From: a virus
IMG/VR virus record: IMGVR_UViG_3300026118_000001
Location: 1 to 64,000 of that record
DNA: 64,000 nucleotides
Strand: one strand, 5' to 3'
Shown here: positions 4,023 through 39,100 of the stretch, piece by piece
Numbering within the stretch: the first letter of the stretch is position 1
Layout: each line of letters begins with the position of its first letter
Notes under the pieces: model-generated
What the model saw: only the letters and a program-made list of their open reading frames with translations
What the model was told of the DNA's origin: nothing
Database searches by the model: none
Translations under genes and position numbers: made by a program

Positions 4023-5101
4023 TGAAAACATTATATAAGCGTGATAGTCGTGGAAAGATTAGAATATGGCAAATTTATACTCAAGGAGCTTTATTAATTC
4101 AAGAAAGTGGATTAGAAGATGGTAAATTAGTTAAACATCAAAAGTTTTGTACTCCTAAGAATATTGGTAAATCTAATGGTACAGATTGTAATCAACAAGC
4201 TTTATTAGAAATGGATTCTTTGATTAAACAAAAACTTGATGAAGGTTATTTTGAAACTAAAGAATTAGCTGAAAGTGAAAAAGTAATTCTTCCTATGTTA
4301 GCTAAATCATATGATGATGAAAAGCATAAAATAGATTGGTCTAAAAATGTATTTATTCAGCCTAAATTAGATGGAATGAGATGTTTGGCTCATTGTAAAT
4401 CTAATGGAGATGTAGAATTAGTTTCTAGAGATGGTAAAATTATTGATAGAGATATAATGTTTCATATAATTAAAGATTTATCTAATATTAAGCAAGATAT
4501 TATTTTGGATGGTGAATTATATGCTCATGGATTAAGCTTTCAAGAAAATATGAAACTAATTAAAAAATATAGAAAGGGAGAAACTGAATTAATTAAATAT
4601 CATATCTATGATGTTGTTTTAAATGAGCCTTTTGATCATAGAGCTTCTATTATATATACAATTTCTCAAAGATTGAAATCTATTAATATTGAGTATGTTG
4701 AATCTATTGGAATGAATGATGAAAAAATGTTAATTGATTTTCATAGTGAAAATATATCTGAAGGATATGAAGGATCAATTATTAGACATGGTGATGAAGG
4801 TTATAAAATGAATGGTAGAAGTTCTAATTTATTAAAGTATAAAGACTTTAAAGATATGGATTTATCAATTTTAGATATAACTCCTAATGAAGCTAATCCT
4901 TTACATGGAACTCCTTGGTTTAAATTAAATGATAAACTGTTTAAAGCTGGGTGTAAACTAAGTCATGAAGATAGGGAGGATTTATTAACTAATAAAGATG
5001 AGTATATTGGTAAAATAGCAACTATTAGGTATTTTGAATTAACAGATGAAGGTTTATTACGCTTTCCTGTAATGGTTGGAATTAGAAATGATTTAAATTA
5101 A
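4022..5101 (+). CDS. lig: ATP-dependent DNA ligase
   Basis: Motif I QPKLDGMRC, LDGELY, YHIYD, EGSIIR, LLKYK, C-terminal LRFP. Confidence 0.93.
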   Translation: MKTLYKRDSRGKIRIWQIYTQGALLIQESGLEDGKLVKHQKFCTPKNIGKSNGTDCNQQALLEMDSLIKQKLDEGYFETKELAESEKVILPMLAKSYDDEKHKIDWSKNVFIQPKLDGMRCLAHCKSNGDVELVSRDGKIIDRDIMFHIIKDLSNIKQDIILDGELYAHGLSFQENMKLIKKYRKGETELIKYHIYDVVLNEPFDHRASIIYTISQRLKSINIEYVESIGMNDEKMLIDFHSENISEGYEGSIIRHGDEGYKMNGRSSNLLKYKDFKDMDLSILDITPNEANPLHGTPWFKLNDKLFKAGCKLSHEDREDLLTNKDEYIGKIATIRYFELTDEGLLRFPVMVGIRNDLN

Positions 5102-17009: not shown

Positions 17010-17414
17010 ATGTCAAAAGAAAGAAAATTATTAATGCAAAAATTAGTTAAAGAAGAAGCAACTAATTTATTAAAATATGCTAAAAAGAAAGAATTAAATA
17101 ATTTGAATTTTGAAAATTTAGATTCAAATGATAAGGAAAAATGTATTTATGGACAAATTACTGGTGATTGTTTTAATAATAGGGCTAGTACTTTAGTTGT
17201 TAAATGTGCTTCTAGAGTTTATGTATATGATGAAGAAAAAGAAGATATTCTAAAAAATAATAGAATTAATGGAAAGCCAAAATTAGAAGAAAGAAATAGA
17301 TATTTTAGTCCAATAGAAGTTTTTATTTATAATAAAACTAATCAAAATAATGGAAATAATAAAATGTTAGTTGATTATTTAAAAGGAGAAAGAAAAACAC
17401 TAAAATTTAAATAA
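17010..17414 (+). CDS. hypothetical protein
   Basis: 134-aa ORF. Confidence 0.6.
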   Translation: MSKERKLLMQKLVKEEATNLLKYAKKKELNNLNFENLDSNDKEKCIYGQITGDCFNNRASTLVVKCASRVYVYDEEKEDILKNNRINGKPKLEERNRYFSPIEVFIYNKTNQNNGNNKMLVDYLKGERKTLKFK

Positions 17415-18448
17415 TGAAATTAACAAAAAAACAAAAATTAATTTATGATTGGTTAATTTCTAAACCTGGATATTTAAAGAAATCAGCAGATAAACTTTGT
17501 GAAATATCTGATTTATATGGATCTTTAAAAGATCATGAAATAGCTTTAAAAGAAGCTAGAAAAGATAATAAATTTAGTGATAAAGTAATAATAGATAATT
17601 TTAGTAAATCTAATGAATTAGTTATTTTAGATAATATTAAGAAATTTGGAATTGAATATCATCCAAAAGATGTAGCTTTTAAAACTAATGTGTCTAAACA
17701 AAGAAATCAATCAGGAACTTATTTTGTAAGTGGTTGTATTCATGCTCCTTGGCAAAATAAATTAATGTTTGATAGTGTATTAAATTTTCTTAAAAAAGAA
17801 GTTGACTTATATGGTATTATTTTAGCAGGTGATATAATTGATTTAAATTCTCTTAGTTCTCATGATAAAGGTAAAAAACCAATAAAAGGAGTAACTTTAG
17901 ATTGGGAATATTCAGAAGCTAATAAGTTCTTAGATACTTTAGATGATTTAAATATTAAAGGAACTAAGGATTATATATATGGTAATCATGAGGATAGATA
18001 TTTGAGATATATGAAAGATATTGATAATTCTAAATTGGGAAGTGCTTTGCAATCTCCAGAAATAGGTTTAAAACTTAGAGAAAGAGGTTATAATGTATAT
18101 ACTGATTGGAAAAATGATGCTATTAGTTTAGGTGTTCATTTAGATATTAATCATGGTGAATTTCTTAATGTGCATACAGCAAAGAAAACTATAGATACTT
18201 ATAGAAAATCTAATTTATATTTTCATACACATAGGTATCAAGTTTATACAGAAGGTAAAGTTGGGGGATTTAATATGGGTTTTGGAGGTGATATAGATGC
18301 ACCAATATTTGGATTTGCTACTAGAGCTATGAAATTAAGCTGGACTAATTCATGTACATTAGTTCATCTAGATAAAGATGGTATGTTTCATGTTCAACCG
18401 CTAGTTTATGTTAATAACCAATTAATTGTTAATGGTAAAAAATATTAA
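17414..18448 (+). CDS. calcineurin-like metallophosphoesterase
   Basis: GCIH (DxH variant), GDIID, GNHEDR, HG, HTHR. Confidence 0.8.
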   Translation: MKLTKKQKLIYDWLISKPGYLKKSADKLCEISDLYGSLKDHEIALKEARKDNKFSDKVIIDNFSKSNELVILDNIKKFGIEYHPKDVAFKTNVSKQRNQSGTYFVSGCIHAPWQNKLMFDSVLNFLKKEVDLYGIILAGDIIDLNSLSSHDKGKKPIKGVTLDWEYSEANKFLDTLDDLNIKGTKDYIYGNHEDRYLRYMKDIDNSKLGSALQSPEIGLKLRERGYNVYTDWKNDAISLGVHLDINHGEFLNVHTAKKTIDTYRKSNLYFHTHRYQVYTEGKVGGFNMGFGGDIDAPIFGFATRAMKLSWTNSCTLVHLDKDGMFHVQPLVYVNNQLIVNGKKY

Positions 18449-18467
18449 TTTATGAATCAATAAAATT

Positions 18468-18977
18468 ATGATTAAATTATTTAAAAATATGAAAACATTA
18501 AAACTAAGTGATGAAAAAGCACTTGAATTATATAAAAATGCAGATCAATCTTTTAAGTGTCTATTAGAAGAAAATTTTGGTAAAGATTTCTTTAAACCTA
18601 AATTAATTACAGATAAAGTTTTTGATATAGAAACTCTTTGTGAATATTTAAATATTGATGAAGATGAGTTATATATTTTTAAAAAGAATACAAAAGACAA
18701 ACATGAAAGATATATAAATGCTTGTAATATTCTTTCTAAAATAGCTCAAGTTTATAATGAAGGTGTAATATTAGATTGGAAAAATAGTAATATTTATAAA
18801 TATTTACCTTATTTAAGCTTTTCTGATTCTGATGGGGGGGTTGTTGAGTTCTGTACTTGGCGCTATTGTTTGTGTGGGTCTGTTGGTCTTTACTATAAAA
18901 CTAATGAATTATCTAAATCTTCTTATAATAATTTTCAATCAATTTGGGAAGATTATTGGGGAATGAAAGCTAATTAA
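18468..18977 (+). CDS. DGR target protein 1
   Basis: Contains VR1; paralog of 20139..20624 (LDW-x5-YK-x-x-PY); start may be 18489. Confidence 0.9.
   Translation: MIKLFKNMKTLKLSDEKALELYKNADQSFKCLLEENFGKDFFKPKLITDKVFDIETLCEYLNIDEDELYIFKKNTKDKHERYINACNILSKIAQVYNEGVILDWKNSNIYKYLPYLSFSDSDGGVVEFCTWRYCLCGSVGLYYKTNELSKSSYNNFQSIWEDYWGMKAN
18817..18890 (+). repeat. variable repeat VR1
   Basis: 74-nt ungapped match to 19004..19077; 18 of 19 mismatches at TR adenines. Confidence 0.95.
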
Positions 18978-18986
18978 TAATATTAA

Positions 18987-19167
18987 AGTTGGTACAATAA
19001 TTTGCTTTTCTAATTCTAGTGAGAGAGTTGTTGAATTCAATAATTGGAACTATAATTTGAATGAGTCTATTAGTCTTCGCTTATTATATCATATTGTACA
19101 ACTGTGGCTATAGCCAAAAAATAAATAAAACTTAAAACAGCTTTGGTAAATTATTGAAAAAGATGTT
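18987..19167 (+). ncRNA. DGR template RNA 1 (TR1 with structured flanks)
   Basis: Non-coding; stem 18987-99/19092-103 encloses TR1; hairpin 19105-16; stem 19136-67. Confidence 0.7.
19004..19077 (+). repeat. template repeat TR1
   Basis: AAT/AAC-rich non-coding copy of VR1, 22 adenines. Confidence 0.95.
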
Positions 19168-19198
19168 AATAATAAGTAAAAAAGAATAAAATAATTTT

Positions 19199-20149
19199 AT
19201 GAAAAGAGAAGGTTATTTATTTAATAAAATATGTTCAATAGATAATCTTATATTAGCTGAAAAGAAAGCTAGAAGAGGAAAAAGTAAACAAAGTGGTGTA
19301 AAAGAATTTGATTTAGATAGTGAAAATAAATTAATTCATTTACACCATTTATTAGTTAATAAAGAATTTATAACTTCTGAATATAATATATTTAGTTTGT
19401 TTGAAAAGAAAGTAAGAATTATATCAGAATTACCTTATTATCCAGACAGAATTGTGCATCATGCAATTATTAATATTATTGGTGATATATTTATAAAGTC
19501 TTTTACTAAAGATACTTATAGTTGTTTAAAGAATAGAGGTATTCACAAATGTTTGAATAATCTTAATAAAGCTTTAAAAAATAGGGAAGAAACTAAGTAT
19601 TGTTTGAAATTAGATATTAAAAAATATTTTCCTTTAATTAATCATGAGATTTTAAAAGATTTTATTAATAATAAAATTAAAGATGAAAATGTATTACAAT
19701 TATTATATGGAATTATAGATTCAAATAAATTAGGAATTCCTTTAGGAAATTATACTAGTCAATTATTTGGAAATATTTATTCTAACAGTTTACTTCATTA
19801 TTTAAAAGAAGAACTAAAAATTAAACATTTGTTTCTTTATTGTGATGATTTAGTTATTTTAGGGTCTAATAAAGATGAATTAAGAGTTATTTTAAATAAA
19901 ATTAGAATTTATTTAGACATTAATTTAAAACTTAGTCTTTCTAATTATCAAATATTTCCTGTAAAATCTAGAGGAATTGATTTTCTAGGATATGTCAGTT
20001 ATCATGATTGTATTTATTTAAGAAAAAGTATTAAAAATGATTATATTAAAATGATGAAGTATTATCCAAATAAAAAATCTAAAGCCAGTTATAATGGTTG
20101 GTTATTAGCTTGTAATAGTGTAAATTTAAGAAATAAATATGAAAAATGA
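19199..20149 (+). CDS. DGR reverse transcriptase
   Basis: DRIVHH, LKLDIKKYF, GIPLGNYTSQ (DGR-type SQ motif), YCDD, IDFLGY; 316 aa, no maturase or endonuclease domain. Confidence 0.95.
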   Translation: MKREGYLFNKICSIDNLILAEKKARRGKSKQSGVKEFDLDSENKLIHLHHLLVNKEFITSEYNIFSLFEKKVRIISELPYYPDRIVHHAIINIIGDIFIKSFTKDTYSCLKNRGIHKCLNNLNKALKNREETKYCLKLDIKKYFPLINHEILKDFINNKIKDENVLQLLYGIIDSNKLGIPLGNYTSQLFGNIYSNSLLHYLKEELKIKHLFLYCDDLVILGSNKDELRVILNKIRIYLDINLKLSLSNYQIFPVKSRGIDFLGYVSYHDCIYLRKSIKNDYIKMMKYYPNKKSKASYNGWLLACNSVNLRNKYEK

Positions 20150-20624
20150 TAATATAATTGAAATGCTTGAATCAAATGATAAAGACTGTGTTTATTTGGC
20201 TGTTTCAATGATTAGAAATTATTCTACATTACTATCTGTTGAAACTAAAAAATCTTTAAATAAAGTTTCTTTATTTGATAGAATTAAAAATTATTCAGAT
20301 GTTTGTAAAGATTTGGAGGAGGATGAATTAAAACTTTCTAATTTTAATTTTCTTTCAAAAGATTATAGAAAGAAAGCTTTTAATCAAGCTAAATTGCAAC
20401 AAATACAAAAATTATTTAATGGTGATTGGAAATTAGATTGGTCAGATATAACTCAATATAAATGGTTTCCTTATTTTGAAATAAAGGTTTCTGGTGGTAT
20501 TGGCTTTTATGTTTCTTATTTTCATACTTCTACTTTCGGTGATGCTCCTGCCTATTTTAAAGATGAAGAAACTTCAAATTTTGTAGGAAAATTATTTATA
20601 GATATTTATAAAGAATTAATGTAA
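20139..20624 (+). CDS. DGR target protein 2
   Basis: Contains VR2; overlaps the RT stop; paralog of target 1. Confidence 0.9.
   Translation: MKNDNIIEMLESNDKDCVYLAVSMIRNYSTLLSVETKKSLNKVSLFDRIKNYSDVCKDLEEDELKLSNFNFLSKDYRKKAFNQAKLQQIQKLFNGDWKLDWSDITQYKWFPYFEIKVSGGIGFYVSYFHTSTFGDAPAYFKDEETSNFVGKLFIDIYKELM
20487..20553 (+). repeat. variable repeat VR2
   Basis: 67-nt ungapped match to 20652..20718; all 14 mismatches at TR adenines. Confidence 0.95.
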
Positions 20625-20633
20625 TATTAATAA

Positions 20634-20811
20634 GGTTGAATATTAAATTTAGTTTCTAGTAGTATTAGCTTTAATGATTCTAATTATCATAATTCTAATT
20701 TCAATGATGAACCTACCTCTTACTTAATAATCATAATATTAACCGTAGCTATTGCTAAAAAATTAAATAATTTAAAAACTATATTAGTACCTTTATTGTG
20801 GAAAGTTTGGT
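20634..20811 (+). ncRNA. DGR template RNA 2 (TR2 with structured flanks)
   Basis: Stem 20634-45/20734-44 encloses TR2; hairpin 20746-57; stem 20778-811; same layout as template RNA 1. Confidence 0.7.
20652..20718 (+). repeat. template repeat TR2
   Basis: AAT-rich non-coding copy of VR2, 21 adenines. Confidence 0.95.
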
Positions 20812-21002
20812 AATTAAAGTAATATTAAAACATTAGCTTCTAGGCCAGAAGATCGAAACTCTTGAAACGCTTAATTATTAAAACGTACCAGTTTATCATG
20901 GAAATTGATAGAACGTAAGTAATAATATTTCAACTAGAACGTTAGCTAGACTGTTTATGGTTATCAGTGAGTAAAACCATTTATAATTAAATAATAAATA
21001 TA

Positions 21003-21233
21003 ATGGCTAGATTTAATAGTAATATAGAGATTTGTAACAAACTTATAGATTTCTTTAATAAAGAAGAATGTAAAGACATTAGATTCTTTCAAGCTTTACA
21101 AATATTAAAATTACAAGATATTATTATACTTGAAGATATAAATCATTCTTATATAGAAGATAATTTTAATGAAGAATCATTAACAACATTAAAGAAAATA
21201 ATAGAATATGAAAAAACAATTAATAGCAAATAG
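21003..21233 (+). CDS. hypothetical protein
   Basis: DIRFFQAL...DNFNEES pattern seen in small phage proteins. Confidence 0.6.
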   Translation: MARFNSNIEICNKLIDFFNKEECKDIRFFQALQILKLQDIIILEDINHSYIEDNFNEESLTTLKKIIEYEKTINSK

Positions 21234-21591
21234 AATATTATGTTTATTGTGTGATGATTTAATTCAAAGTAAACATGGACATGATATGCAATGGTGTAAT
21301 TGTCATTCTGTTGCTACTGATGGTGGATTGAATTATTTAAAAAGAAGTGGAGAATCATATAATTATATTGATGCTTCTATTTATTCTGATGACCATTTAA
21401 TAATTAGAGAATATTTAATCTGGGGAGTTAATTATGATAAAAATATGAATAGATTACCTGATACAATATTTAAACCAATTATGGAGTTGGAATCAGATCA
21501 TATTCAAGCAATATTAGCTACTCAAACTCATATTTCAGAATTATATAAAACTACTTTTGAAAAAGAATTAAAATATAGAAATGGAAAATAA
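21208..21591 (+). CDS. zinc-binding phage protein
   Basis: CLLC...S-x-H-x-HD...C-x-C...DGG-x-x-Y-x-x-R. Confidence 0.7.
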   Translation: MKKQLIANRILCLLCDDLIQSKHGHDMQWCNCHSVATDGGLNYLKRSGESYNYIDASIYSDDHLIIREYLIWGVNYDKNMNRLPDTIFKPIMELESDHIQAILATQTHISELYKTTFEKELKYRNGK

Positions 21592-22708
21592 TGATTCAGT
21601 TTGCTTTATAGCAAAAATCAATAAAATATCTTCAATTGAAAATGCTGATAAAATAGAATTAGCTACATTAAATGGATGGACATCAATAGTTCAAAAGAAT
21701 ATACATAAAGAAGGAGATTTAGTTTTATGTATAACTACGGATGCTGTAATTAGTCAAGATTTATGTGATAAATGGGGAATAATAAGTTATCTTAGGAAAG
21801 GTAATAGAGTTAGAACAGTTAAATTAAAAGGTGTTTATAGTGAATGTATTTTAATTCCTTTATTTGATTTACCGTTTATATCAACTATTAGATATAAAGA
21901 AGGTGAAGATTTAATGGAAAAATTAAAAATATTTAAATATGAACCTCCAGTAATTGTGACTCAAGACTCTAAAGGAAGGAAACATAAATATCATCAAAAT
22001 CCTAATTTTCATATTTATTACAAATTTCCTAATCAAAAGAATGTTCCTAATATGTTTAATGAAGATGATGATGTTGTAATAACTAGAAAAATACATGGTA
22101 CAAATGCCAGATACGGTATAGTTAAAAAATCTAAATTAACTATTCTAGATAGAATTAAGAAATTCTTTGGTAATAAATGGATTGAATATGAGTATATTTA
22201 TGGCTCTCACAATGTAGAAAAGGGTTCAGATTCTCAAGGATTTTATTCTACAGATGTTTGGAAGGAAATAGCTGATAAATATGATATTAAGAATAAACTT
22301 TGGTTTCTAGTTAAAAACTGTCCCGAGTTTAAAGGAGGAATTACTATTTATGGAGAAATTTATGGAGAAGGAATTCAAGGAGAAAAATATTCTTATGGAT
22401 TAAAAACTAAAGAACTTAAAATATTTGATATTGAACTTAATTCATTATATGTAGATCATTTTAGTTTTTGTGCTTTAAATCATGGTTATTTAAATTCATT
22501 ACCAATGGTAGAAGAACTTTATATAGGTAAATGGAATAAAGAAATTCAGAATGCTTTTGTAAATAATCAATTTATAGAAGGAACTAAAATTCCACATGAA
22601 GGAATAATTTGCAAGCATATTTCTGGAAATAGACAAAAGATTTCAAAAGTAATTAATCCAGATTATTTAATATTTGGAGAAAAACATTTAGTACCAGATT
22701 CACATTAA
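21581..22708 (+). CDS. RNA ligase (Rnl2 / DRB0094-like)
   Basis: N-terminal IENADKIE OB-like domain; motif I RKIHGTN, YGEIYG, IFDI, HEGII, KVINPDY. Confidence 0.88.
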   Translation: MENNDSVCFIAKINKISSIENADKIELATLNGWTSIVQKNIHKEGDLVLCITTDAVISQDLCDKWGIISYLRKGNRVRTVKLKGVYSECILIPLFDLPFISTIRYKEGEDLMEKLKIFKYEPPVIVTQDSKGRKHKYHQNPNFHIYYKFPNQKNVPNMFNEDDDVVITRKIHGTNARYGIVKKSKLTILDRIKKFFGNKWIEYEYIYGSHNVEKGSDSQGFYSTDVWKEIADKYDIKNKLWFLVKNCPEFKGGITIYGEIYGEGIQGEKYSYGLKTKELKIFDIELNSLYVDHFSFCALNHGYLNSLPMVEELYIGKWNKEIQNAFVNNQFIEGTKIPHEGIICKHISGNRQKISKVINPDYLIFGEKHLVPDSH

Positions 22709-22709
22709 C

Positions 22710-23231
22710 ATGAAAGAAATAATAATATGTATAGGAATTAGTGGTTCAGGTAAATCAACTTGGACTACTAATTTTATTAAAGAAAATTCTAATTATTTAA
22801 GAATTAATCGTGACTCAATCAGATTAACTTTAGTTGGTAATTTAGATGGTTATTATCAGAGAAAAGATTTAAATTATATTGAAAGAGATGTAACTAGACT
22901 AGAAGATGAGTTTTATAAACATTTAAGTTTAAGTGGATTTAATATAATTATTGATAATACTAATTTAACTGAAAAATATATTAATAGATGGATTAATTTA
23001 TCCAATTGTTTAAAATTAGATGCTAGAATTAATTTAAAATTTAAATTATTTGATATAACATTAGAAGAAGCTAAAGAGAATGTTATTAATAGAGAAGACT
23101 ATTATACTCCAGCATTAACTCCTCATTACAAATATCATCAAGATAAGGTTGAATATATTGATAAACAATTTGAGCAATATAAACAAATAAAAAAGTTTAT
23201 TGAAGAAAATTATAAAGATAAAATAATATGA
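22710..23231 (+). CDS. polynucleotide kinase (P-loop, AAA_33)
   Basis: GISGSGKST, INRDSIR, IIDNTN as in the T4 Pnk kinase domain. Confidence 0.85.
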   Translation: MKEIIICIGISGSGKSTWTTNFIKENSNYLRINRDSIRLTLVGNLDGYYQRKDLNYIERDVTRLEDEFYKHLSLSGFNIIIDNTNLTEKYINRWINLSNCLKLDARINLKFKLFDITLEEAKENVINREDYYTPALTPHYKYHQDKVEYIDKQFEQYKQIKKFIEENYKDKII

Positions 23232-23863
23232 AAAATATATTTTTTACTTCAGATACTCATTTTCATCATAAAAATATAGTTAGAGGAACAACTGAATGGA
23301 TAGCTCAAGAGGAAGGTTCTAATCATGGAATTCAATCTTTAAGATATTTTAATACTTTGGAGGAACATGATGAAGCATTGATTAAATCTATTAATTCTAT
23401 AGTTAAATATGATGATGTATTATATCATTTGGGTGATTGGAGCTTTGGTGGACATGAACAAATTAAAAAGTTTAGAGATAGACTAGAATGTAGAGAGATA
23501 CATTTAATATTTGGAAATCATGACCAACATATAGAACCTATTTCTAGTCCTTATAGAGAATGTTTCAATTCAACTCAATATTATTTAGAATTAGATATGA
23601 AAATTGATTCTCAAAAGTCTGGTAAATATGTAAAAACTAATATAGTTTTATCTCATTATTCTCATCAAGTTTGGAATAAATCTCATAAAGGAGCAATTCA
23701 TTTGTTTGGGCATTCTCATGGAAGTTTAAAAGGTATTGGTAAATCAATGGATGTTGGAGTTGATACTAATAATTTATATCCTTATCATTTAGATGAAATA
23801 TTAGATATTATGAAGAATGTAAAAACTGAAATTGTAGATCATCACAGTTCAAATACAAATTAA
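23228..23863 (+). CDS. calcineurin-like phosphoesterase
   Basis: SDTHFHH, LGD, GNHD, SHY, GHSH, DVGVD. Confidence 0.88.
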   Translation: MKNIFFTSDTHFHHKNIVRGTTEWIAQEEGSNHGIQSLRYFNTLEEHDEALIKSINSIVKYDDVLYHLGDWSFGGHEQIKKFRDRLECREIHLIFGNHDQHIEPISSPYRECFNSTQYYLELDMKIDSQKSGKYVKTNIVLSHYSHQVWNKSHKGAIHLFGHSHGSLKGIGKSMDVGVDTNNLYPYHLDEILDIMKNVKTEIVDHHSSNTN

Positions 23864-25056: not shown

Positions 25057-25469
25057 TGGATGAATATTTAGTAGAAGGAAAATCATATGAAAGATTATAT
25101 GATGAATATAAGAGATATGGCAGTTTATATGGAGCTTTTGATTTTGATGGTACAATACATGATTATCATAAAACAGGGGCTTCATATGAATTAGTAAAAC
25201 AATTGATTAGAGATTTATATTCTATTAATTGTAAATTAGATTGTTGGATAGCTTATATAGATCATAGTTATGTTATTTCTTTTTTAAAAGAACATAATAT
25301 ACCTTATGAAAAAATTAATAGTGATGGAATACCATTATCTTGGACAAGTAGAAAACCTTTTCATTCATTTTTATTAGATGATAGAGCAGGTTTAATTCAA
25401 GTATATAATGATTTAAAAAAATTAATACAAACAGTAAAAAATGAAAATAAATCCAATAATACTTTGTGA
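25056..25469 (+). CDS. HAD-family phosphatase-like protein
   Basis: FDFDGTI motif I, KP, LLDDRAG motif IV. Confidence 0.7.
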   Translation: MDEYLVEGKSYERLYDEYKRYGSLYGAFDFDGTIHDYHKTGASYELVKQLIRDLYSINCKLDCWIAYIDHSYVISFLKEHNIPYEKINSDGIPLSWTSRKPFHSFLLDDRAGLIQVYNDLKKLIQTVKNENKSNNTL

Positions 25470-26922
25470 TGGTTACAAGGTTGGACATAAAAAAATGTAT
25501 CCAAAAGGTACAACATTAGTATATAGTAATTATACTTGTAGAACTGTTAAAAGAATGCCAGTTGAAGCCGAAGATATAGTTGTATTTGGAACTCAATATA
25601 TGATTAAATATATTAATGATGTATTTAAAAATGATTTTTTTGGTGTTTCTAAAGAAATTGTTTGTGGAGAAGCTAAAGAATATTTAACTAATTATTTAGG
25701 AAGTGAATATGATGTTTCTCATTTTGAAGCTTTACATGATTTAGGTTATTTACCTATTGAAATTAAAGCTTTAGAAGAAGGAACTATCATACAAGCAGGT
25801 ATTCCATTATTTACAATTAAAAATACATTACCAGAGTTTTTCTGGGTAACAAATTATTTGGAAACTTTAATTTCTACTTTAATTTGGAAACCAGTTCATT
25901 CAGCAAGTTTAGCTTATGGTTATAAAAAACTATTAACTAAATATGCTTTAGAAACTGATAAAGATAATATAGGGTTTGTTGATTTTCAAGGTCATGATTT
26001 TAGCTTTAGAGGAATGCAATCTCCTGAATCAGCAATTAGTTCAGCAATGGGCTTTTTAACTAGTTTTAAAGGTACAGATACAGTTCCAGCATTACAAGCT
26101 TTAAGTTATTATTATAAAGAAAATAATACAGCTTTTAGTGTTCCAGCTAGTGAACATTCAGTAATGTGTTCTCATGGTAAAGAGGGAGAGATAAATACAT
26201 TAGAATATTTAATGGATCAATATCCAAAAGGTATTTTAAGTGTTGTTTCTGATACTTGGGATTTGTGGAAACTTTTAACTGAATATTTACCTAAATTGAA
26301 AGATAGAATTATGTCTAGAGATGGTAAATTAGTAATTAGACCTGATTCTGGAGATCCTGTTGATATTATTTGTGGAATTAATACAAGAAAAGATCCTGAT
26401 AATAGATATGGTAAATTAAAAGACACACCTGAATATAAAGGTGTAATTGAATTACTTTGGGATATTTTTGGTGGAACTATAAATGAACAAAGATATAAAG
26501 TCTTAGATAGTCATATAGGAGCTATTTATGGTGATTCAATTACTTTAGAGAGGGCTCAACAGATTTGTGAAAGACTTAAAGCTAAAGGATTTGCTAGTAC
26601 TAACATTGTTTTAGGTATTGGTAGTTATTCAATGGGATATGCAACTAGAGATAATCAAGGAGGAGCTGTTAAGTCTACTTATGTAGAAGTTAATGGTGAA
26701 GCTAGAGAAATCTTTAAAGATCCAATAACTGATGATGGGACTAAAAAGTCTGCTAAAGGCTTGTTGAGAGTAAATATGAACGGTGATTATTCTTTATATT
26801 TAAAAGATCAATGTTCTTGGAAAGAAGAAGTTGGTGGTGGATTAACTACTATTTATAAAGATGGAGTATTAATCAAAGAAGTTACTTTATCTGAAATAAG
26901 AGAAAGAATAATAAAAGGTTGA
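25441..26922 (+). CDS. nadV: nicotinamide phosphoribosyltransferase-like protein
   Basis: DGYKVGH, HDFSFRG, GTDT, ASEHSVM, SVVSDTWD, IRPDSGDP, YGDSIT, KDPITD..KKSAKG. Confidence 0.92.
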   Translation: MKINPIILCDGYKVGHKKMYPKGTTLVYSNYTCRTVKRMPVEAEDIVVFGTQYMIKYINDVFKNDFFGVSKEIVCGEAKEYLTNYLGSEYDVSHFEALHDLGYLPIEIKALEEGTIIQAGIPLFTIKNTLPEFFWVTNYLETLISTLIWKPVHSASLAYGYKKLLTKYALETDKDNIGFVDFQGHDFSFRGMQSPESAISSAMGFLTSFKGTDTVPALQALSYYYKENNTAFSVPASEHSVMCSHGKEGEINTLEYLMDQYPKGILSVVSDTWDLWKLLTEYLPKLKDRIMSRDGKLVIRPDSGDPVDIICGINTRKDPDNRYGKLKDTPEYKGVIELLWDIFGGTINEQRYKVLDSHIGAIYGDSITLERAQQICERLKAKGFASTNIVLGIGSYSMGYATRDNQGGAVKSTYVEVNGEAREIFKDPITDDGTKKSAKGLLRVNMNGDYSLYLKDQCSWKEEVGGGLTTIYKDGVLIKEVTLSEIRERIIKG

Positions 26923-30155: not shown

Positions 30156-33100
30156 TTATTTACACTTTTTTTCTATTAATTTTCCTAAACTTTCATCATC
30201 ATGAACTTCATTAAGTTCTTTTAAAAGTTCTTCTTTTAATTGTGGTTGAAATTCAAATAAAAATTCAATATCTGATTTTAGTTCATTGTATTGTTCTTTT
30301 GATAATTCAAATTTCTCTCCAATATTAGTTATTTTCTCTTGTATTGGCAACTTATTTTCTTCTTTATTTATTTCATTGGATAAATAGATATTTCTAGCTT
30401 CTTCATTCCAAATTCCATTAGTTTGATTATAAGCATTAAACATTTTAATCATTTTAGATGATGTTAAAATAGCTACATTCTTATCATCTAATTTTTTAAT
30501 AATATTCCATGCTTTTAATGCTCTTTCTCTAAATTGTTTAAATGACTCAGCTTTTGGATTTATTTTTTCTTCTTCATTAATTGGATTAGACCATAACTTT
30601 TCATCATATTCATTCTCTTTAACTTCACCTTCCCAATTACCCATATTCATAGTTTTTAGATTTTCATCTGTATAATATGGAATATTTTGTTCTTTTTTAA
30701 TAATTTCTGCTGTTTGAATCACTCTTTCAATTGGAGAAGTAATTAATGATGTAATTCCTTGTATTTTTAATTCTTTTCCTAAATTAGAAGCTTGTTCTTT
30801 TCCTTCTTTAGTGAGATTTGTATCAGATTGTCCATTAATCACATCTTTAGATGAGGGAACATCTTCTCCATGTTCAAATACTATTAAATTACCAACTTTT
30901 ACTGGTTCTACTTTTGGTGATATGTTTTCTATAGTTATTTTTAATGGAGTTGTAATAGGAATATATTTAACATTAAATCCTTTTGTAGCTTTATTTACAT
31001 CATAGTCTTTACCATACATTCCATTACCCAAAGCAGAAAGTTGTAGATTTTTAAATATAGTTGGTACAATTTTATTGTTATTTCTAATAAATAGTTCATT
31101 AAATTTTGGTAGTATTTCTGCCCCATTTTTTTTATTAAATTCTTCAAATGAGTCTTTAACTAATTGATTATAATATTCAAATGGAATAATTCCTAAATAA
31201 GTTATAGGAGAATTATTAAGTCCTGATTGTAATATTCCAACATGAATTAATTCATTTCCTAATGATAAATTAGAATTCTTTAGTTCTCTAAATGCTTCTG
31301 TTAATTGATTAGATGTAAATGTATCTAATTTTTTAGTAAATATTTTAACATTGTCATAATTTAAAGCTGCTTTATCAATTAATGGAAATAATTCTTTAAT
31401 TAGAATATTATTTCTTAATTGCTTTTCATCTTCATTTAAATTTTCTTCTTTTTTATTCTTTAATTCTAATAGTTTCTTAGCAACTGAATTTTCTCCTTCA
31501 AATAATCTCTTTCTAATAGCATTAATATTCTTATATCCATAGTTTTGAATTACAAAATTAATAAAATCATTTTCAATTAGATTAATCATTTTTAATTTCT
31601 CTTTTCTTGATGATTTAAATGGATTTTCTAATTCATTGGCAAGACCTAATATATTATTGATTATTTCTTCTTTTTGTGTGTCATAGAACTGTTTATATGA
31701 AGATATAGCAAATTCATCTTGTTGAAATGATTTAATAAATGTCTTATTAATAATTTCATTAACACCATTAATAAAATTGGTTTTTTGTACTTTATTTATT
31801 TCTTCTAATTTAAGTCTTGAACTATTAATATTTTGACCTAATCCAGCAGTATCAGAATTAGTAACTCTAACAGCATCATTAAATAAACTAGCTTGTTCTT
31901 TATATTTTAAGAAATCATTAAATACTTGTAATTGAAATAATTCAAATTCTTTAGTAGATTGATTCTCAATTAATTTAAAATCTTTTAATTCTTTTAAAGA
32001 AAGTATTTTATTTTCAATATCCTTTTCAGAAACTAAATTAGAATATTTTTTCTTTATTTGTTTAGTTATTTCTGTATTTCTTTGATTCTTTCCTGTAGAT
32101 TTTAAAAATATAGATTTATTCTTATTAATTTCTTCTATATAATCTAAAATAATAGGTTGAGTCATGAAATTAGCAATGTGTTCAAACGGAACTCCTAATT
32201 TATTCAAATATAAATAAATAGGAAGTGTATCCATAGTCATGTTTAAATAACTTACCATTGGAATTTCATCTTTAGCAGCATCCACAATAATATTAATTAA
32301 CTGATTGTTAATTTCAGATATATTATGATTATTTTCTGCGTCTTTTAAAGCTCCTAAATTAAAAACATCTCTAATTTCATTGTGAATTAAATTAATATTC
32401 ACTTTAATTTCTTCTCCAGCAGCATTAATATAAGATTTATTAGCTGTTAGTCCAGATAATTGAGAAAGTGGCCCATAAGCATTAGCAATAGCAGATAAAC
32501 CTACTTCATCTTTAGCAAGCCATAATTTATATCTAGCATTTATTTTATTTTGTAATTTTAATAAGGCTGTATAATTAATCTTTTTATCTTTTGAATTTTG
32601 AGCTTCAAAATATTCTTCTTTAGTTAATATTTTTTTAGGTTCTCTTCCTTTAGAAATTAATTCATTATTAGCTTCTGTTTTATCATTTAAATAATCAATA
32701 TATTTAATATCATCAACTATTGGTGATATAATACTTGTTGAATTGGGTGTTATTAGTGATATAAAGTTATGAGGATTAGAAATAAAATCTTTGATTACTT
32801 GTATTGTTTTATTATCAATATTATCTTCAATATAATTACCATTTTCATCTAAATTTGGTCTATAAGTATATAATTTGTCATTGTCAAAGTCAGATCCAGC
32901 TTTAGCAACTATATCAGGATGAACTATCATAGTAGTAGCTGCATCTTCTGGTAGAAACTCTTTAATAGTTAAATATTCATTGGAATTCATTCCTTGTCCT
33001 GGAATACGACATCCAACTAATTCTAATACTTTATTAGGTATATCTCCATTTTTAATAGCTTCATTAACTGCTTTTAAACTACCAAATTTCTTTAATAATG

Positions 33101-36100
33101 GATAATAACTTTCAGATAGAGGAATCATTACTTCTGCTGGTAATGTATTTCCAGATGTATCTTTTGTATATCCTCTTAGAGCATTATTAGATCCAATAGG
33201 TCTATTTCCAAGTTTCTCCATTCCAGCCACTGTACCTAATACATAAGCATCTCCATTATATTTTTGTTTAATGAGTCTGGCATCAATAATAGACATTAAT
33301 ACAGAATCTAGTTTGGTTTTATTAACCATACTATCAATATTGTATTTTAATACCTTTTTACCTTCTTTTTCTTCAATATCTAATGAATTAATTATGTTAT
33401 CTGTTAATTTCCTATTTTCAGAATATTCTACTAACATATCAACCAATTTAGTAACATCTTCAGCTACATATGTATCAGGATTAATACCTAATTCTTTAAT
33501 TAGCTTATCTTTTTCTATTTTAGTTTTTTCTTCAATTAAGTTAGAGAAAGTTGATAATAGTTTTTCTGCTCCTTCAAATGTTTCTTTACCATTTTCAAAA
33601 GCATTAATTAACATTGTTTTTCTAAACTGTGTAGAAAATATATATTTATCTTTTGGTGGTGAAGGTTTAACTTGTAGTCCTAAATAATTATAAGATATTG
33701 ATTGTATAACTAAATCTGCATTATTAATTTCTCCATGATTATTATTTGTATAAAATGGATTTGCTTTACCATCTTTATTAAGAATAGTTCCAAATTTACT
33801 TGCTGATTTGAATAATGCAATACCTGATTTATTAGATTTCATGTTCTCTAATAATTTAGATAGATTCTTTCCAGCTACCATTTGAGGAATCAAAGGCATT
33901 ATAGTAAATTTATAACCTCCAGGAACAAATAATTGCTGTGTACTTCCATGATTAATTGGTCCAGCATATTGTAGTTTAAGAGTTTGAAAATAAGTTAATT
34001 CATCTTTAGTTAATAATTTCCCCTCTATTAAATTTCCTTCATTATCAAATTTTTGTTTTTGAATTATTTGATAAGCATTTTCCATTTTATTAGTCCAAGT
34101 ACCAACTCTATTATGAAACTCTCTAATAAAATCTAAAGATCCCCATCCTTGAGCATCTCCTTCATCTGCTTTACCATAAGCTGAAATCCCTTTAAATTCT
34201 TCAGATTCAGTTTTCTCATAACCTAATATATTATATGCTGCTTCTTCTGAAACTCCAGATTTAATATAAGTATCAACTAATTCTTTAATATCTTTGGTTG
34301 TAGTTACATCATTATAAACTATTGAATTTTCATTTCCATCAGCTAGTTTATTATCAGATCTAATAAAATTCTTATTTAAGAAATCATTAGTTTCTTCATC
34401 TACTCTAGGAATTAGTTTGGTTCCTGCAAACATCGCAGTTCTTTTATATAAATCCTTATAGAAAGCTAAATTTCCAATAAATAATTTAGTTTGTTCTATT
34501 GAATTTATAAAATCTGTAACAACTATTGCTCTGATTAATTGTTCTTTTGGGTATTTATCTGTATATTCTTTTGGAATACCAAATTCATTTATATTATTTT
34601 CTTTTAATGAATTATTTAATTGTCTTGAATAAGATTCAAAGAAATCAATAACTAATTTATCTAAATCAGGTAATAGAGAATTTACTAATTCATCTAATTC
34701 TTCTTTAGATTCATTATATTTAACTTCCTTAAATTTTAAATCATCTAATTTAGATTTTAATATCTCTTTAATATTTACTTTACTAGATTTTAATAATATT
34801 TCATTAAATATAGTAAAATCACTACCATTTTTAGAATATCCATCTACATTAGTGCCAATACCATCTAATTTGAATAAAGCAATTCCTTTAAATTCTGATT
34901 TAAAATAACCTCTAAATATTTCTTTTAATTTAATAGTATTAAATCCAGATTTTAATAATTCTATTGATACTGGAAGCTTATTACTAAGTCCTAATACAAA
35001 TTCTTGTGATTTATCTGCTGATACAATATAATTAGATTTGCCATTTAATATAGAAGCTATATTTTGAGTGAATAAATCTCCTTTAGTACCTTTTCTTGTA
35101 GATATTTTACTAACATCTTCTGATTCTTTAGAAGAAGCTACACCATCATGTAATTCTAAATTAAGTTTAATATTTTTATTTCTAAGTCCTGTTTTTGGAT
35201 TGAATAATTCATTTAACCAAAATGAGTTTTCTGCTCCAACAGTATTTAAATGTGGAAGTTTTAAAAATAATTCTTCAATAGAATTAACATTATTAATTAT
35301 ATTTGTAGTGATTGATAAAGCATTATTATCACTAACAGAATAAACTGTCTTACCTTCTGTAGACATATAACTTAGTTCATTAACTAAACTAGTATTATTA
35401 GCTTCTAAAGTTAATAGATAATTAATTCTACCTGCTATACCATCTTCTTCTTTTCCAGAATTATATAAATTAGTAACATCCCCATTTTTTTTATCAATAT
35501 ATATCTTTATAGCAGCAACACTATCATTTAGATCATTTAGATTAAAATCTTTATCATTAATAATCTTTTGTGTGTTTTTATCAAATATAATACCTAATTT
35601 ATCTAAAAAAACAAATGGATCTTTTTCATTAATTACATCTTTATTTATAATTAATTTTCCTTTCTCATCTTGTTTAGTGTGTAATAATAAATTAGCTTCC
35701 CAAATAGTTTTTACTTTTTCAGCTTCATTTTGTCTATTAGTATCAACAGGAATTATATTACCATTTGGTTCATATATAGTTACAATAGCATTATATCTAT
35801 TTTTGTTAAAATCTTGTGTAAATTGAGTTTGAAATCTAAATTGTTCCACACTAATATCACTAGATGGTGCTCCAAGTCTATCAATTAATTCTTGAAATTC
35901 AGGTTTAAATTCAATTAAAGACTCTATTTTATTATAAATATCAGAATAATTGTTTCCTGTTCCAGCTAAATTCTTCAATAAATAATTATATGTAGAAGTG
36001 AAATCAACTGGAATAGAAAATCCTAGATCATTAGTGATATTAACTTGTTTTAAACTTCTAATTAATAGTCTTACGGGACTACTAATAGATTCTAGTGTAG

Positions 36101-39100
36101 AAGTTAAATTCCCTTCAGAATAATCTCCCTTACTAGAATGTTCATCTAATTGTTCATCTTTTGATAATTCTTCATCCTCATTTTTAATTTCTTCAATATT
36201 ATTTTCTATTTTAGTAACTATCTCAACACCATTGATGTTAATTCTAGTTTTCCACATATTAATAATATCATCCCAATTTTCTAATATGTATTCATAATCT
36301 TTTATTTGTTTCTCATCAACAGAATTTTGATATTTATCATCTATAATATCATGTATTTTATCTGTTATTTTATTTACATGACTATTTGCAATAACAGGAG
36401 TTCTCCCATTATCAAATATATAATCAAAAAATAAAATATCTATTCCATCTAAAACATCTTTAACAAATTTAGTGCCTTTTTCATTAGTTATTCTTTTTGT
36501 GTTCTCATCCCTGTTAAGTGATGAGAATTCTTTTGTATTAACTAATTTCTTATTTGTATAATAGCCTTTATCAAGTCTTTCATATACTTGTTGAATATTT
36601 GTACTGCTAATACCTAATAAGTCTTTTAAAAAGCTTAAAATACGTCTAAAAATAGTATTTCTTTGTGGAGAGTTATTTAATACTTTACCTCCTAGTTTAT
36701 AACTAACAAAATCTTCTGCTAATATTTCTTCTAATTCTTTTCTAGATTTATTTGAATATTTTTTAGAAGCCTCATTATATAGTTTATCTATTTCTTCTTT
36801 AGTAAGATATAATTGTGTTATAACATGGAATGCTTCATGATGAAGAGTTCCAATAGTAGCTTCATCTGATAATAATACTTCACCAGATGATAGAAATTGA
36901 CCTAAAGATTTTTGTTCAATTAATCCTTGAATAAAATTAATAGGAATATTAGGAAATCTCTCTTTAAACCAATTAATTTCTTCTTGAGATAATTTGTTTC
37001 TATCTTGATTTCTTTTTTTAAGTCTATCTAATACTTTGTCACCACTTCTTTTTTTAAACTCTTTTTTAATTGGTTTAATTTCTTCTGTAATAATTGGAGA
37101 TGTATTATCTTCTATTCTTTCAGAAGTTTCTAAATCAACTTTTTCTTTTAATTTATTTTCAATTAATTTATTATCATAAATAAAATAAGATTGAATAAAT
37201 CTTCTATTTGGTCTTCCATTTAAATCAACTATTGGTTTTAAATCAGTTCCAAACATAGGAACTTCTCCTGATAATAAATATTCATTATAGTGCACATTTT
37301 CACCTCTACCATTAATATCTGGTTTAGTGAAGGATTCTCCCTTAATATATTTATTATTAACATTAACCTTTTTAGTTAATAAGAAATCAATAATTTTAGA
37401 TCTATTTGATTCTATTTCTTCTTTAGTTAGTTCGTTATTATCAAATACAAGTCTTCCATCAGAATTGATATAAATATCTGAAGGTTTATTAGACTTAAAG
37501 AATGTAGTTATTTTCTTAATTTCATCTATTGGATCAAAATCTAAATCTTTTTCTTTAGTATTTAGTTTCTTATTAATTAAATCAATAATTAAACTAGCCT
37601 CATCTACATTAAGATTTCTTGGAATTAAATCAAATATTCTTCTATTACCATCTTTAGTATATAACTTTCCAGGCAACACTTTAATATTATTAAATATTAA
37701 ATTAAATGTTGGAAGTGTTAATGGGATTTCATCATATTTTATATTCTTGTCAAATATTCTTCCTAATAAATTATTAGATTGTCTTTCACCATTAATTTTA
37801 TCTTCAAAAGCAGAATGAATAATGTTAGCATTTTCATCTGTTTCAATCATAAGTCCATTAGATTTACCTATAATTGGAAGATATTTAACATCATTATTTT
37901 TTAATAATAAGATTTCATCTCTTAAAGAATTTAAATCTTTAATTGCTTTCTCTTTAGCTTTTGATTTATCTTCTTTAGAAAGTCCTCTACCAATATCAAT
38001 TTTATTATCAGAAATACGTTGAGCAGTTTCTAATGTAGATTGAATAAATTTATCCTCTTCTAATACTGGATTATTCTCTTTGTCAACTAATATAGTCCAA
38101 ACTCCTTTAAAATCAGGATGTTTTTTCTCATATTCTTTAGCTGTAGGATCATTATCTAATATTTGAGAATATAATTCAGGATTTGTAGCTTTTGTTACTA
38201 CTAATAATTTATGTTCATCTAAAACTATTGTTTCTGTAGTTTTAAAATATCTATCTTCTGATGGTTTCTGTCCATTATCAATTCCTCCATTTGTTTTAAA
38301 TGGTGTATTAGCTTTTCTACCAACATCATTACTATCATCTAATATAAATTCTTTATTAATAAATAAAGGATCTTCATTAATAGTTGTAGGAGATTCTACA
38401 TTAGAAATAATTGGTTCATTATCTACTTTTGTTGATTGAGGAGTAGTTTGAAATTTTAATTCTTTTTCAATTTCTGCTTTATTATTCTCATAAAATTGTA
38501 AATCTTTTGGATCTGTAAGACTTTCAGTGTCCATTATTTTTTGAACAAAATCTTGAATTTCTTTAGAAGCTTTTGATTTAGAAATTAAGGGTTCATCAGT
38601 AACTTTTGGAAGTGGAATTTCTTCTACAATATTTGATTCTTTAGATTCTTCTTCAGAAGTGTCAATAATATCATTAAGAGTTTTCTTTTGTGTTTTTGGA
38701 TCTGCTAATAAGTTATAAGACTCAATTAATTTGTCTTTATATAATTTAGCTAAATGTAAATCTTTATTTGCTTGATTAACTTGTTGAGCAACCATTGGAT
38801 TACCATCAACAGTAAATGGAGATTCTGGTGTTCCTAATCCAGTGATTGTAGCATCATTTTCAGCAGCTATTTTATAAATATCACTATGAATTTGTTTAAC
38901 TCTTTTATCAATATTACTTATTGATGTAGAATAATGCCATAAATTTGTTGTTAATGTATTATATTTTTCTGGAGATTCATAAACCTCTTGTTTATAAGGA
39001 AATAACTCATGAATAGAATTATTAGTTTTATCTAGAGTTTTAACTAATGAAATAGCATCATTAATTATTTGTTCTTTAGAATGCGGAAGAGGTTTTTCTA

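Follow-up and report, generated by a model that had tools for sequence, protein, structure and literature searches.

In the first 64,000 nucleotides of a viral genome (IMG/VR record IMGVR_UViG_3300026118_000001; this stretch is hereafter called the window), we identified a diversity-generating retroelement (DGR) that is very probably functional, with one reverse transcriptase (RT) for two complete template modules. Each module consists of a target gene (T) that carries a variable repeat (VR), a template repeat (TR) and a structured RNA element placed after the TR, here called Sp. All parts lie on the + strand in the order T1(VR1)-TR1-Sp1-RT-T2(VR2)-TR2-Sp2. An initial annotation of this DNA had proposed the order target 1, TR1, RT, target 2 and TR2, with which the coordinates of the open reading frames (ORFs) agree. 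The full genome measures 89,726 bp and is rated complete with direct terminal repeats; we found an exact terminal repeat of 99 nt. Its A+T content is 74%, and the G+C content of the window is 25.7%. The features of the element are as follows.

T1 target gene, 18468..18977, + strand: ORF of 169 aa, paralog of T2, small protein of an uncharacterised phage family
VR1, 18817..18890, + strand: codons 117-141 of T1, from the alignment with TR1
TR1, 19004..19077, + strand: intergenic template with 22 A and 6 AAY codons in the frame of the VR
Sp1, 19100..19177, + strand: RT-17-like structured RNA element between TR1 and RT, match to covariance model R1 of 71.7 bits
RT, 19199..20149, + strand: DGR-type reverse transcriptase of 316 aa (PF00078, phrog_1423)
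T2 target gene, 20139..20624, + strand: ORF of 161 aa, paralog of T1
VR2, 20487..20553, + strand: codons 117-139 of T2, from the alignment with TR2
TR2, 20652..20718, + strand: intergenic template with 21 A and 5 AAT codons in the frame of the VR
Sp2, 20741..20818, + strand: second RT-17-like copy, 3' of TR2 and not followed by an RT gene, match to R1 of 60.2 bits

In both targets the VR occupies the 3' part of the coding sequence (codons 117-141 out of 169 for VR1 and 117-139 out of 161 for VR2), and both TRs are non-coding and close to the RT gene: TR1 ends 121 nt 5' of the RT start and TR2 begins 502 nt past the RT stop. T1 and the RT gene are separated by 221 nt, the end of the RT gene overlaps the start of T2 by 11 nt, and 378 nt separate T2 from the next ORF at 21003.

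The two TR/VR pairs bear the signature of adenine-directed mutagenesis. VR1 and TR1 align over 74 nt without gaps and differ at 19 positions, 18 of which are adenines in TR1 (13 replaced by G, 3 by T and 2 by C); the sole mismatch at another base is a G in TR1 that is an A in VR1, at 18832. VR2 and TR2 align over 67 nt with 14 mismatches, 14/14 at TR2 adenines (6 G, 5 T and 3 C). The coordinates and the mismatch and adenine counts given for both pairs by the initial annotation were thus reproduced to the base. We then scanned all 89,726 nt of the genome on both strands with each TR, scoring only the non-A template positions. TR1 matched itself (0/52 non-A mismatches) and VR1 (1/52), the next best site having 22/52, and TR2 matched itself and VR2 (0/46), the next best site having 18/46. 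Half-length scans of the whole genome with each TR yielded no shorter extra VR. Since each TR matches solely itself and its own VR, the element has two TR-VR pairs, both private, and lacks remote targets, and the same scan bears out the earlier statement that neither TR can template the VR of the other. In the frame of the targets, 14 codons are variable with TR1 and 15 with TR2, for a protein-level variant space of about 1.2e12 and 1.0e12, respectively; the upper bounds of 4^22 and 4^21 nucleotide variants proposed before are arithmetically correct. Only one codon, AGA at 19024, can be turned into a stop.

The RT matches PF00078 (RVT_1) with an E-value of 1.8e-15 and phrog_1423, annotated as 'reverse transcriptase', with an E-value of 1.6e-94. 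Its translation holds LGNYTSQ and YCDD, and motifs of the GxxxSQ and YxDD types are hallmarks of DGR RTs. The GxxxSQ motif is also named in PMC12386605. This gene gives the one PF00078 match of the complete genome; a second RT serving one of the TRs, a possibility that had been raised with the original description of the locus, was thus not found in this phage.

Comparison of samples directly shows that both VRs change in an A-specific manner and that the TRs stay fixed. Four assemblies share one gene order: an 80,464-nt contig that possibly comes from the source sample (X1), a 4,258-nt contig from an independent rhizosphere sample (X2), and the IMG/VR contigs L002 and L003 (94 kb), which derive from other samples. 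As independent contigs show an identical order, the layout is not a misassembly, which settles a doubt expressed at the outset. Between X2 and the window, 21 differences are listed over positions 18400-20900 (at most 2 more may be present). Ten are in VR1 (9/10 at TR1 adenines), six are in VR2 (6/6 at TR2 adenines), and none is in the TRs; the remaining five all lie 3' of TR2, and no change is listed in the RT gene or in T1 and T2 outside the VRs. The tenth difference in VR1 is position 18832, where every other sample carries the G of the TR, so that the A is an oddity of the window itself. In a further contig, X4, five differences are listed in VR1 (4 at TR adenines) and six in VR2 (6 at TR adenines), and in X3 nine are listed in VR2 (8 at TR adenines), with 8/10 at TR adenines for both VRs together. 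Overall, the share of VR differences that fall on TR adenines amounts to 15/16 for X2, 10/11 for X4, 8/10 for X3 and 15/20 for L002, and no TR difference is among those listed for X2, X3 and X4. Thus, the variation at TR adenines in both VRs with unchanged TRs that the initial annotation called for is seen between samples and relatives, at the level of contigs. Contig breaks inside VR1 in X3 and inside VR2 in X4 fit within-sample heterogeneity; we did not count them as evidence.

The contig L002 belongs to the same species (98% RT identity), and its comparison with the window places the changes as follows.

VR1: 13 differences (11 at TR adenines) over 74 nt
VR2: 7 differences (4 at TR adenines) over 67 nt, one of which mirrors a change in TR2
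RT gene: 21 differences over 951 nt
Non-VR part of each target: 13 differences
TR1: 1 difference, at the boundary, over 74 nt
TR2: 1 difference over 67 nt

The TR2 difference is a T/C change at 20705, a non-A site, and it is mirrored in VR2 at 20540. This is the expected outcome of copying from TR to VR after the split of the two strains, and we observe one such covariation, from TR2 to VR2.

A covarying RNA element follows both TRs. It came to our attention through a repeat finder that paired 19100-19138 with 20741-20779. Sp begins about 23 nt past the TR, is about 80 nt long and is built of an AACC-type lead, a hairpin of 4-5 bp (P1), an A-run and a stem (P2) that encloses a conserved GTA...ATTG.AAA segment. 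P1 occurs in seven different Watson-Crick forms over 11 copies. We aligned the post-TR spacers of nine sequences (two from the window, two from L003, and one each from L004, L005, L006, L008 and L009); on this alignment, 36/36 cells of P1 are paired, with compensatory changes at 3/4 pairs. RNAalifold found no pairs on a looser spacer alignment, in which differences in loop length shift the 3' arm out of register. A covariance model, R1, was built from the nine sequences, both window copies being part of the training alignment. At E-values up to 0.01, it matched twice in the window, in L002 and in L003 and once each in L004-L009 and L013. No convincing third copy was found elsewhere in the genome with R1 (best E-value 0.22).

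Searches with R1 beyond the training set tie this element to the RT clade. Among 80 further metagenome loci whose RTs share 45-54% identity with that of the window, 59 have exactly one match, and in 58/59 the match ends within about 155 nt 5' of the RT start; in L059 it ends about 240 nt 5' of the RT match. Nine further IMG/VR loci, searched at E-values up to 0.1, gave one match each (9/9), most of them ending just 5' of the RT match and those of L112-L115 about 290 to 410 nt away. In the 59 sequences outside the training set, P1 is paired at 97.9% with compensatory changes at 4/4 pairs, and P2 at 78.3% with compensatory changes at 6/7 pairs; when the partners were slid by one to three columns as a control, pairing fell to 29-52%. 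We do not claim a closing stem P0, which would join the 3' ends of the TR and of Sp and is present in the minimum free energy fold of Sp1: over 70 elements its mean z was -0.40, with 11/70 below -1.

Within the region, Rfam matches are confined to RF03020 (RT-17) and to the two Sp sites. Their scores, 25.7 bits for Sp2 and 22.4 bits for Sp1, are both below the gathering threshold of 40.4, so that by the Rfam rule the copies are too diverged for membership of RT-17. One copy among the 20 related loci searched, in L051, reaches 43.6 bits and exceeds the threshold. Judged from sequence, Sp is a divergent relative of RT-17. Like RF03020, it adjoins an RT gene and has an ACC-type lead, a 4-bp GC hairpin, an A-run and a second stem with a UGGUA...GAAA-type segment; unlike the Rfam consensus, the window copies have no inner hairpin. 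The RT-17-like element lies 3' of a TR wherever a TR was detected, and in three loci such elements flank the RT on both sides. The link of an RT-17-like element to the TR, with one element per TR, is new here. Weinberg et al. (2017, PMC5737381) reported motifs adjoining RT genes, RT-1 to RT-19, and tied RT-10 to the spacer of the BPP-1 DGR; they guessed that other RT motifs serve DGRs, and only RT-10 is linked to one in that paper.

How common is this layout? We compared 106 related loci, 97 from a first set, of which 80 have at least 900 nt 3' of the RT, and 9 further ones from IMG/VR. An ORF of the T1/T2 family is present in 54/97 loci. The usual form has one to three tandem targets 5', all matching a single TR located just before Sp and the RT. 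A family member 3' of the RT occurs among the related loci only in L002, L003, L005 and L061, and a second TR with a second Sp, among the 106, only in L002 and L003. L003, whose RT is 63% identical to that of the window, has the order T-TR-Sp-RT-T-TR-Sp; the search for relatives with two flanking TRs suggested by the initial annotation thus returned the same layout in this relative, where it has been kept. Loose criteria of our TR/VR finder gave many false pairs in A-rich windows and a tightened version was used; this version misses the second pair of L003, which has an A-rich TR, and that pair rests on the loose finder and on other comparisons of the loci. Five loci that appeared to have several TRs (L021, L036, L051, L078 and L094) were rejected, because two VRs of one TR had been compared and no second TR was present.

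In L005, one TR 5' of the RT (2824-2897) templates two VRs, 2666-2737 and 4316-4389, in targets on both sides of the RT, and L061 is arranged likewise. This single-template order, target-TR-RT-target, is a different solution to the problem of serving two targets.

In an RT tree (a quick tree of 84/98 rows with many unresolved forks, from which L049, L056, L066 and L074 were omitted for stops in the match and L010-L018 and L095 for identities below 45%), the window groups with L002, L003 and L004, with a Shimodaira-Hasegawa-like approximate likelihood ratio test (SH-aLRT) value of 91, and L005 and L061 fall elsewhere. L004 has no second cassette. A target tree was built from the parts before the VR (20 rows, a short alignment; six rows without the motif used to trim the VR were dropped). 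There, T2 of the window and the downstream target of L003 are sisters (SH-aLRT 97), on a long branch apart from the other sampled members. This sisterhood implies that the second cassette predates the split of phages whose RTs are 63% identical, and that it was kept since. T1 and T2 are paralogous proteins, with 25% identity across 142 aa (E-value 5e-8). The earlier proposal that a target+TR unit was duplicated and then diverged therefore stands as regards common ancestry, which is supported by this paralogy and by the same RNA element after both TRs; a duplication in place does not follow from these data.

Based on these results, we can propose the following mechanism. A transcript would likely span T1-TR1-Sp1-RT-T2-TR2-Sp2. 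The RT would recognise each Sp and prime there, copy the adjoining TR into complementary DNA (cDNA) with misincorporation opposite adenines, and this cDNA would take the place of the homologous VR in the cognate target and in no other. As TR1 and TR2 share no usable homology, T1 and T2 would be diversified independently. The role of Sp in recruitment and priming of the RT is proposed by analogy with Bordetella, in which the enzyme is recruited by the non-coding segment 3' of the TR (PMC6182149, PMC5737381), a segment that processive cDNA synthesis requires and that provides the priming 2'-OH, at Sp A56 (PMC6182149). We infer that Sp acts as handle and primer for the RT and that the enzyme is active without Avd. 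Promoter and terminator scans were at shuffle level (26 promoter-like sites against 24.9 expected, and 0 terminators), so that the single transcript is also something we infer.

Several points weigh against a working DGR with two modules. No match to Avd (PF05635) was found in the complete genome at E-values up to 1, no ORF lies between target and TR, and the Bordetella RT is inactive without Avd (PMC6182149). Avd-less DGRs are nevertheless described in PMC5758913, so that the missing gene does not exclude membership; the element is a DGR by every criterion that could be tested except Avd, which is not universal. A second gene is absent here, namely a conserved ORF of about 100 aa (phrog_19665; L006:3947-4252 for instance) that lies directly 3' of the RT, often overlapping it, in 67/97 related loci and is also lacking in L002-L005, L009 and L061. 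No extended homology resembling an initiation of mutagenic homing (IMH) site is visible 3' of VR1 or VR2. The variation data are assembled contigs and thus report differences between samples or strains, and the fixed TRs of X3 and X4 are based on the listed differences, so that a TR difference could exist there. Moreover, some VR differences are not at adenines: the one at 18832, 2/13 in VR1 and 2 unexplained ones out of 7 in VR2 of L002, and 1/9 in X3. As for the RNA, single-sequence folds of Sp1 and Sp2 are no better than those of shuffles, so that the argument for a structure is made by covariation, and the 59-sequence alignment was fitted to R1, which favours the structure of the model.

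We weighed four other explanations of the locus. That activity persists in a single cassette, with the TR/VR pair of the other drifting as a fossil of past retrohoming, would recall the extra TR-VR pairs of the phage Lera, which carry non-A substitutions and possibly no longer function (PMC12386605), and each VR does show a few non-A differences against L002. A drifting fossil would, however, gather changes at non-A sites and in its TR, whereas the changes in X2 fall at TR adenines in both VRs (9/10 and 6/6), with none listed in the TRs, the RT or the non-VR parts of the targets. TR2 and VR2 share a recent non-A change, the covarying hairpin is kept in both Sp copies and the downstream cassette is kept in L003. 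We therefore regard a fossil cassette as very improbable. An assembly artefact, or an ordinary divergence of paralogs that looks A-biased, is suggested by the composition of the genome, whose A-rich windows yield spurious A-biased pairs under loose criteria. It has next to no probability: the pairs have 0-1 mismatches at 52 and 46 non-A positions where the background has at least 22 and at least 18, the order is the same in four assemblies, and the differences between samples fall on TR-adenine columns. The genome-wide scan, the independent contigs and the differences at TR adenines refute it.

The remaining two explanations concern the origin of the second module and the enzyme that reads it. 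T2-TR2-Sp2 might have been captured by recombination from another DGR in this RT clade that lost its own RT. This fits the long branch that T2 of the window and that of L003 share apart from all other sampled members, the presence of downstream targets in L005, L061 and thus elsewhere in the RT tree, and the identity of Sp2 to Sp1 (60%), no closer than to the Sp of other loci (42-65%), although such identities do not settle orthology. Against it, no donor with a T2-like target 5' of its own RT was found among the 106 loci or in a pattern-limited IMG/VR search for T2, and the trees that suggest it are quick, with short alignments and many unresolved forks. Capture is a possibility of some substance, towards which we do not lean. 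One TR might instead be served in trans by the RT of the host or of a co-infecting element, since the components of a DGR can be on different strands or transcription units (PMC5758913). Yet both Sp copies belong to one family, which sits 5' of the RT gene of this clade in 68/89 further loci as well as in the viral loci; both thus carry the handle expected for the resident RT. As the phage genome is complete with one RT, we find service in trans hardly credible. A working DGR in which the resident RT uses both modules remains the reading that we favour.

The element shares with the Bordetella BPP-1 DGR an RT with GxxxSQ-type and YxDD motifs, an intergenic TR just 5' of the RT, a VR close to the 3' end of the target whose mismatches are at A, and a structured non-coding segment between TR and RT. 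It differs in that a single RT is accompanied by two TRs and two spacer elements, the second module lying 3' of the RT, and also by the lack of a detectable Avd, by the lack of a visible IMH-like extension and by targets of about 165 aa without a match to Mtd, FGE-sulfatase or C-type-lectin proteins. DGRs with several TRs are on record. According to Yan et al. (2019, PMC6642488), 216/271 DGRs with multiple VRs have one TR, from which it follows that the remainder carry more than one, and a Stenotrophomonas example with two TRs is shown. The Zeta crAss-like phages Lera and ct1yV3 possess three TR-VR pairs (PMC12386605). In Lera, only TR1-VR1 is A-only and the other pairs are possibly inactive, Avd is present, and the targets are C-type-lectin tail-fibre proteins (PMC12386605). 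The present locus differs: its two pairs are clean and variable between samples, each TR is followed by an Sp of its own, the RT has a cassette on either side, and the target genes, in the non-structural arm, encode small proteins.

In our literature searches, we found no printed DGR that combines two clean variable pairs, a spacer RNA for each TR and cassettes flanking the RT, although supplementary tables may list parallels. Likewise, PMC8144416, PMC7517822, PMC4159848 and PMC6602519 yielded no passage on several TRs per RT with the search terms used, and their supplementary tables may list cases. Given the multi-TR DGRs in PMC6642488 and PMC12386605, the locus is a rare and well-supported variant and not a new kind of DGR; the two-TR design noted in the initial annotation as unusual is thus rare but not unprecedented. 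The gut Suoliviridae DGRs cr52_1 and cr60_1 are close for comparison, with an RT of the same clade (45-49% identity) and a phage of the same virus order (36-38% identity of the major head protein). In these, the gene 5' of the RT encodes a 413-aa tail protein annotated as similar to Mtd, in the structural and lysis region. In contrast, the DGR of the window lies in the + arm among genes for nucleic-acid enzymes and phosphoesterases, and its targets are small proteins.

The locus provides a clean natural example of one RT that keeps two unrelated templates in use; the multi-TR cases in print are either totals from surveys or contain pairs suspected by their authors to be dead. The RT-17 motif gains a concrete role in a large DGR clade, that of the spacer after the TR, and the two diverged Sp copies with the same RT are a built-in comparison for the RNA features that the enzyme needs. 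The system is also small and naturally multiplexed, with a 316-aa RT, no Avd found, TRs of about 70 nt and RNA handles of about 80 nt. This can be relevant to directed-evolution efforts that use DGRs with several TRs (bioRxiv 10.64898/2026.07.21.739853).

The role of the small non-structural targets is the most promising side of the finding. T2 matches phrog_11581 (E-value 2.3e-10) and T1 matches it weakly; the function of this family is unknown. No Pfam family was over the cut-off for T1 or T2, and a PDB profile search with a 14-sequence profile gave nothing significant, the best match being dipeptidyl peptidase I (E-value 0.34). By sequence (Pfam and PDB profile), neither target has a match to Mtd, FGE-sulfatase or C-type-lectin proteins. 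The target family has 315 matches at E-values up to 1e-5 and is widespread in environmental phages, outside their structural modules; the names given are all 'hypothetical protein', and none of the best 120 of these 315 has a Pfam domain. Its core consists of a W-x-P-D-W ... K-Y-Y-P-W-F-type motif, followed by the VR and by a C-terminal helix-like segment.

The phage itself is crAss-like and comes from soil. Its major head protein matches phrog_11589 with an E-value of 1.6e-105, and the best GenBank relatives of this protein are from Suoliviridae crAss-like phages, with 36-38% identity over 99% of the protein. On the - strand, an ORF of 3,500 aa (30156-40658) lies in the structural arm and matches in size the giant proteins of crAss-like virions. 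By its head protein, its genome of 89,726 bp, its two opposed arms and its giant ORF, the phage belongs to Crassvirales.

In the + arm, the DGR is preceded by a metallophosphoesterase gene (17414-18448) and followed by genes for an RNA ligase (OB-fold), a polynucleotide kinase and a phosphoesterase (21581-23863); from these similarities, the neighbourhood can be described as an RNA-repair-like cluster. A nicotinamide phosphoribosyltransferase gene lies further downstream (25441-26922; phrog_448, E-value 1.9e-184). In 10 related loci, 20 neighbouring ORFs comprise five nucleic-acid enzymes (HNH/homing endonucleases, a helicase and a ParB-like protein), one hydrolase, seven members of families of unknown function, seven without a match and 0 structural proteins.

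A broader proposal, which we rate as unlikely in its entirety, is that the element is a multiplexed minimal DGR without Avd, in which a TR with its RT-17-like RNA forms a portable module that suffices to enrol a gene, with the one 316-aa RT supplying two private libraries. T1 and T2 would then be small intracellular binders and not receptor-binding proteins of the virion, encoded in the early non-structural arm beside genes for RNA repair and salvage of nicotinamide adenine dinucleotide (NAD), and might act in host takeover or counter-defence, each with a specificity of its own.

Some further observations were made on the related loci and on the surroundings of the element. The phrog_19665 ORF that often follows the RT in relatives has no Pfam or PDB match and is a candidate DGR accessory gene, not described so far. 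The RT clade also occurs on very large contigs (362 kb for L005, 412 kb for L025, 1.54 Mb for L036 and 233 kb for L087), which may be jumbo phages or cellular genomes; the clade is thus not confined to crAss-like phages. On three of these contigs, L005, L025 and L036, small targets of the family lie 5' of the RT, and L087 lacks an ORF of the family and carries one longer VR. The 110-kb locus L009 has three transfer RNA (tRNA) genes at 4112-5033, about 170 nt to 1.1 kb 3' of its DGR; no tRNA gene was found in the window. Finally, Sp2 is followed in the window by 183 nt of intergenic DNA (20820-21002) with a G+C content above that of the surroundings. This stretch has no Rfam or tRNA match and its part 20830-20975 folds no better than shuffles; in the X2 contig, the 8 nt at 20826-20833 are swapped for 88 other letters.

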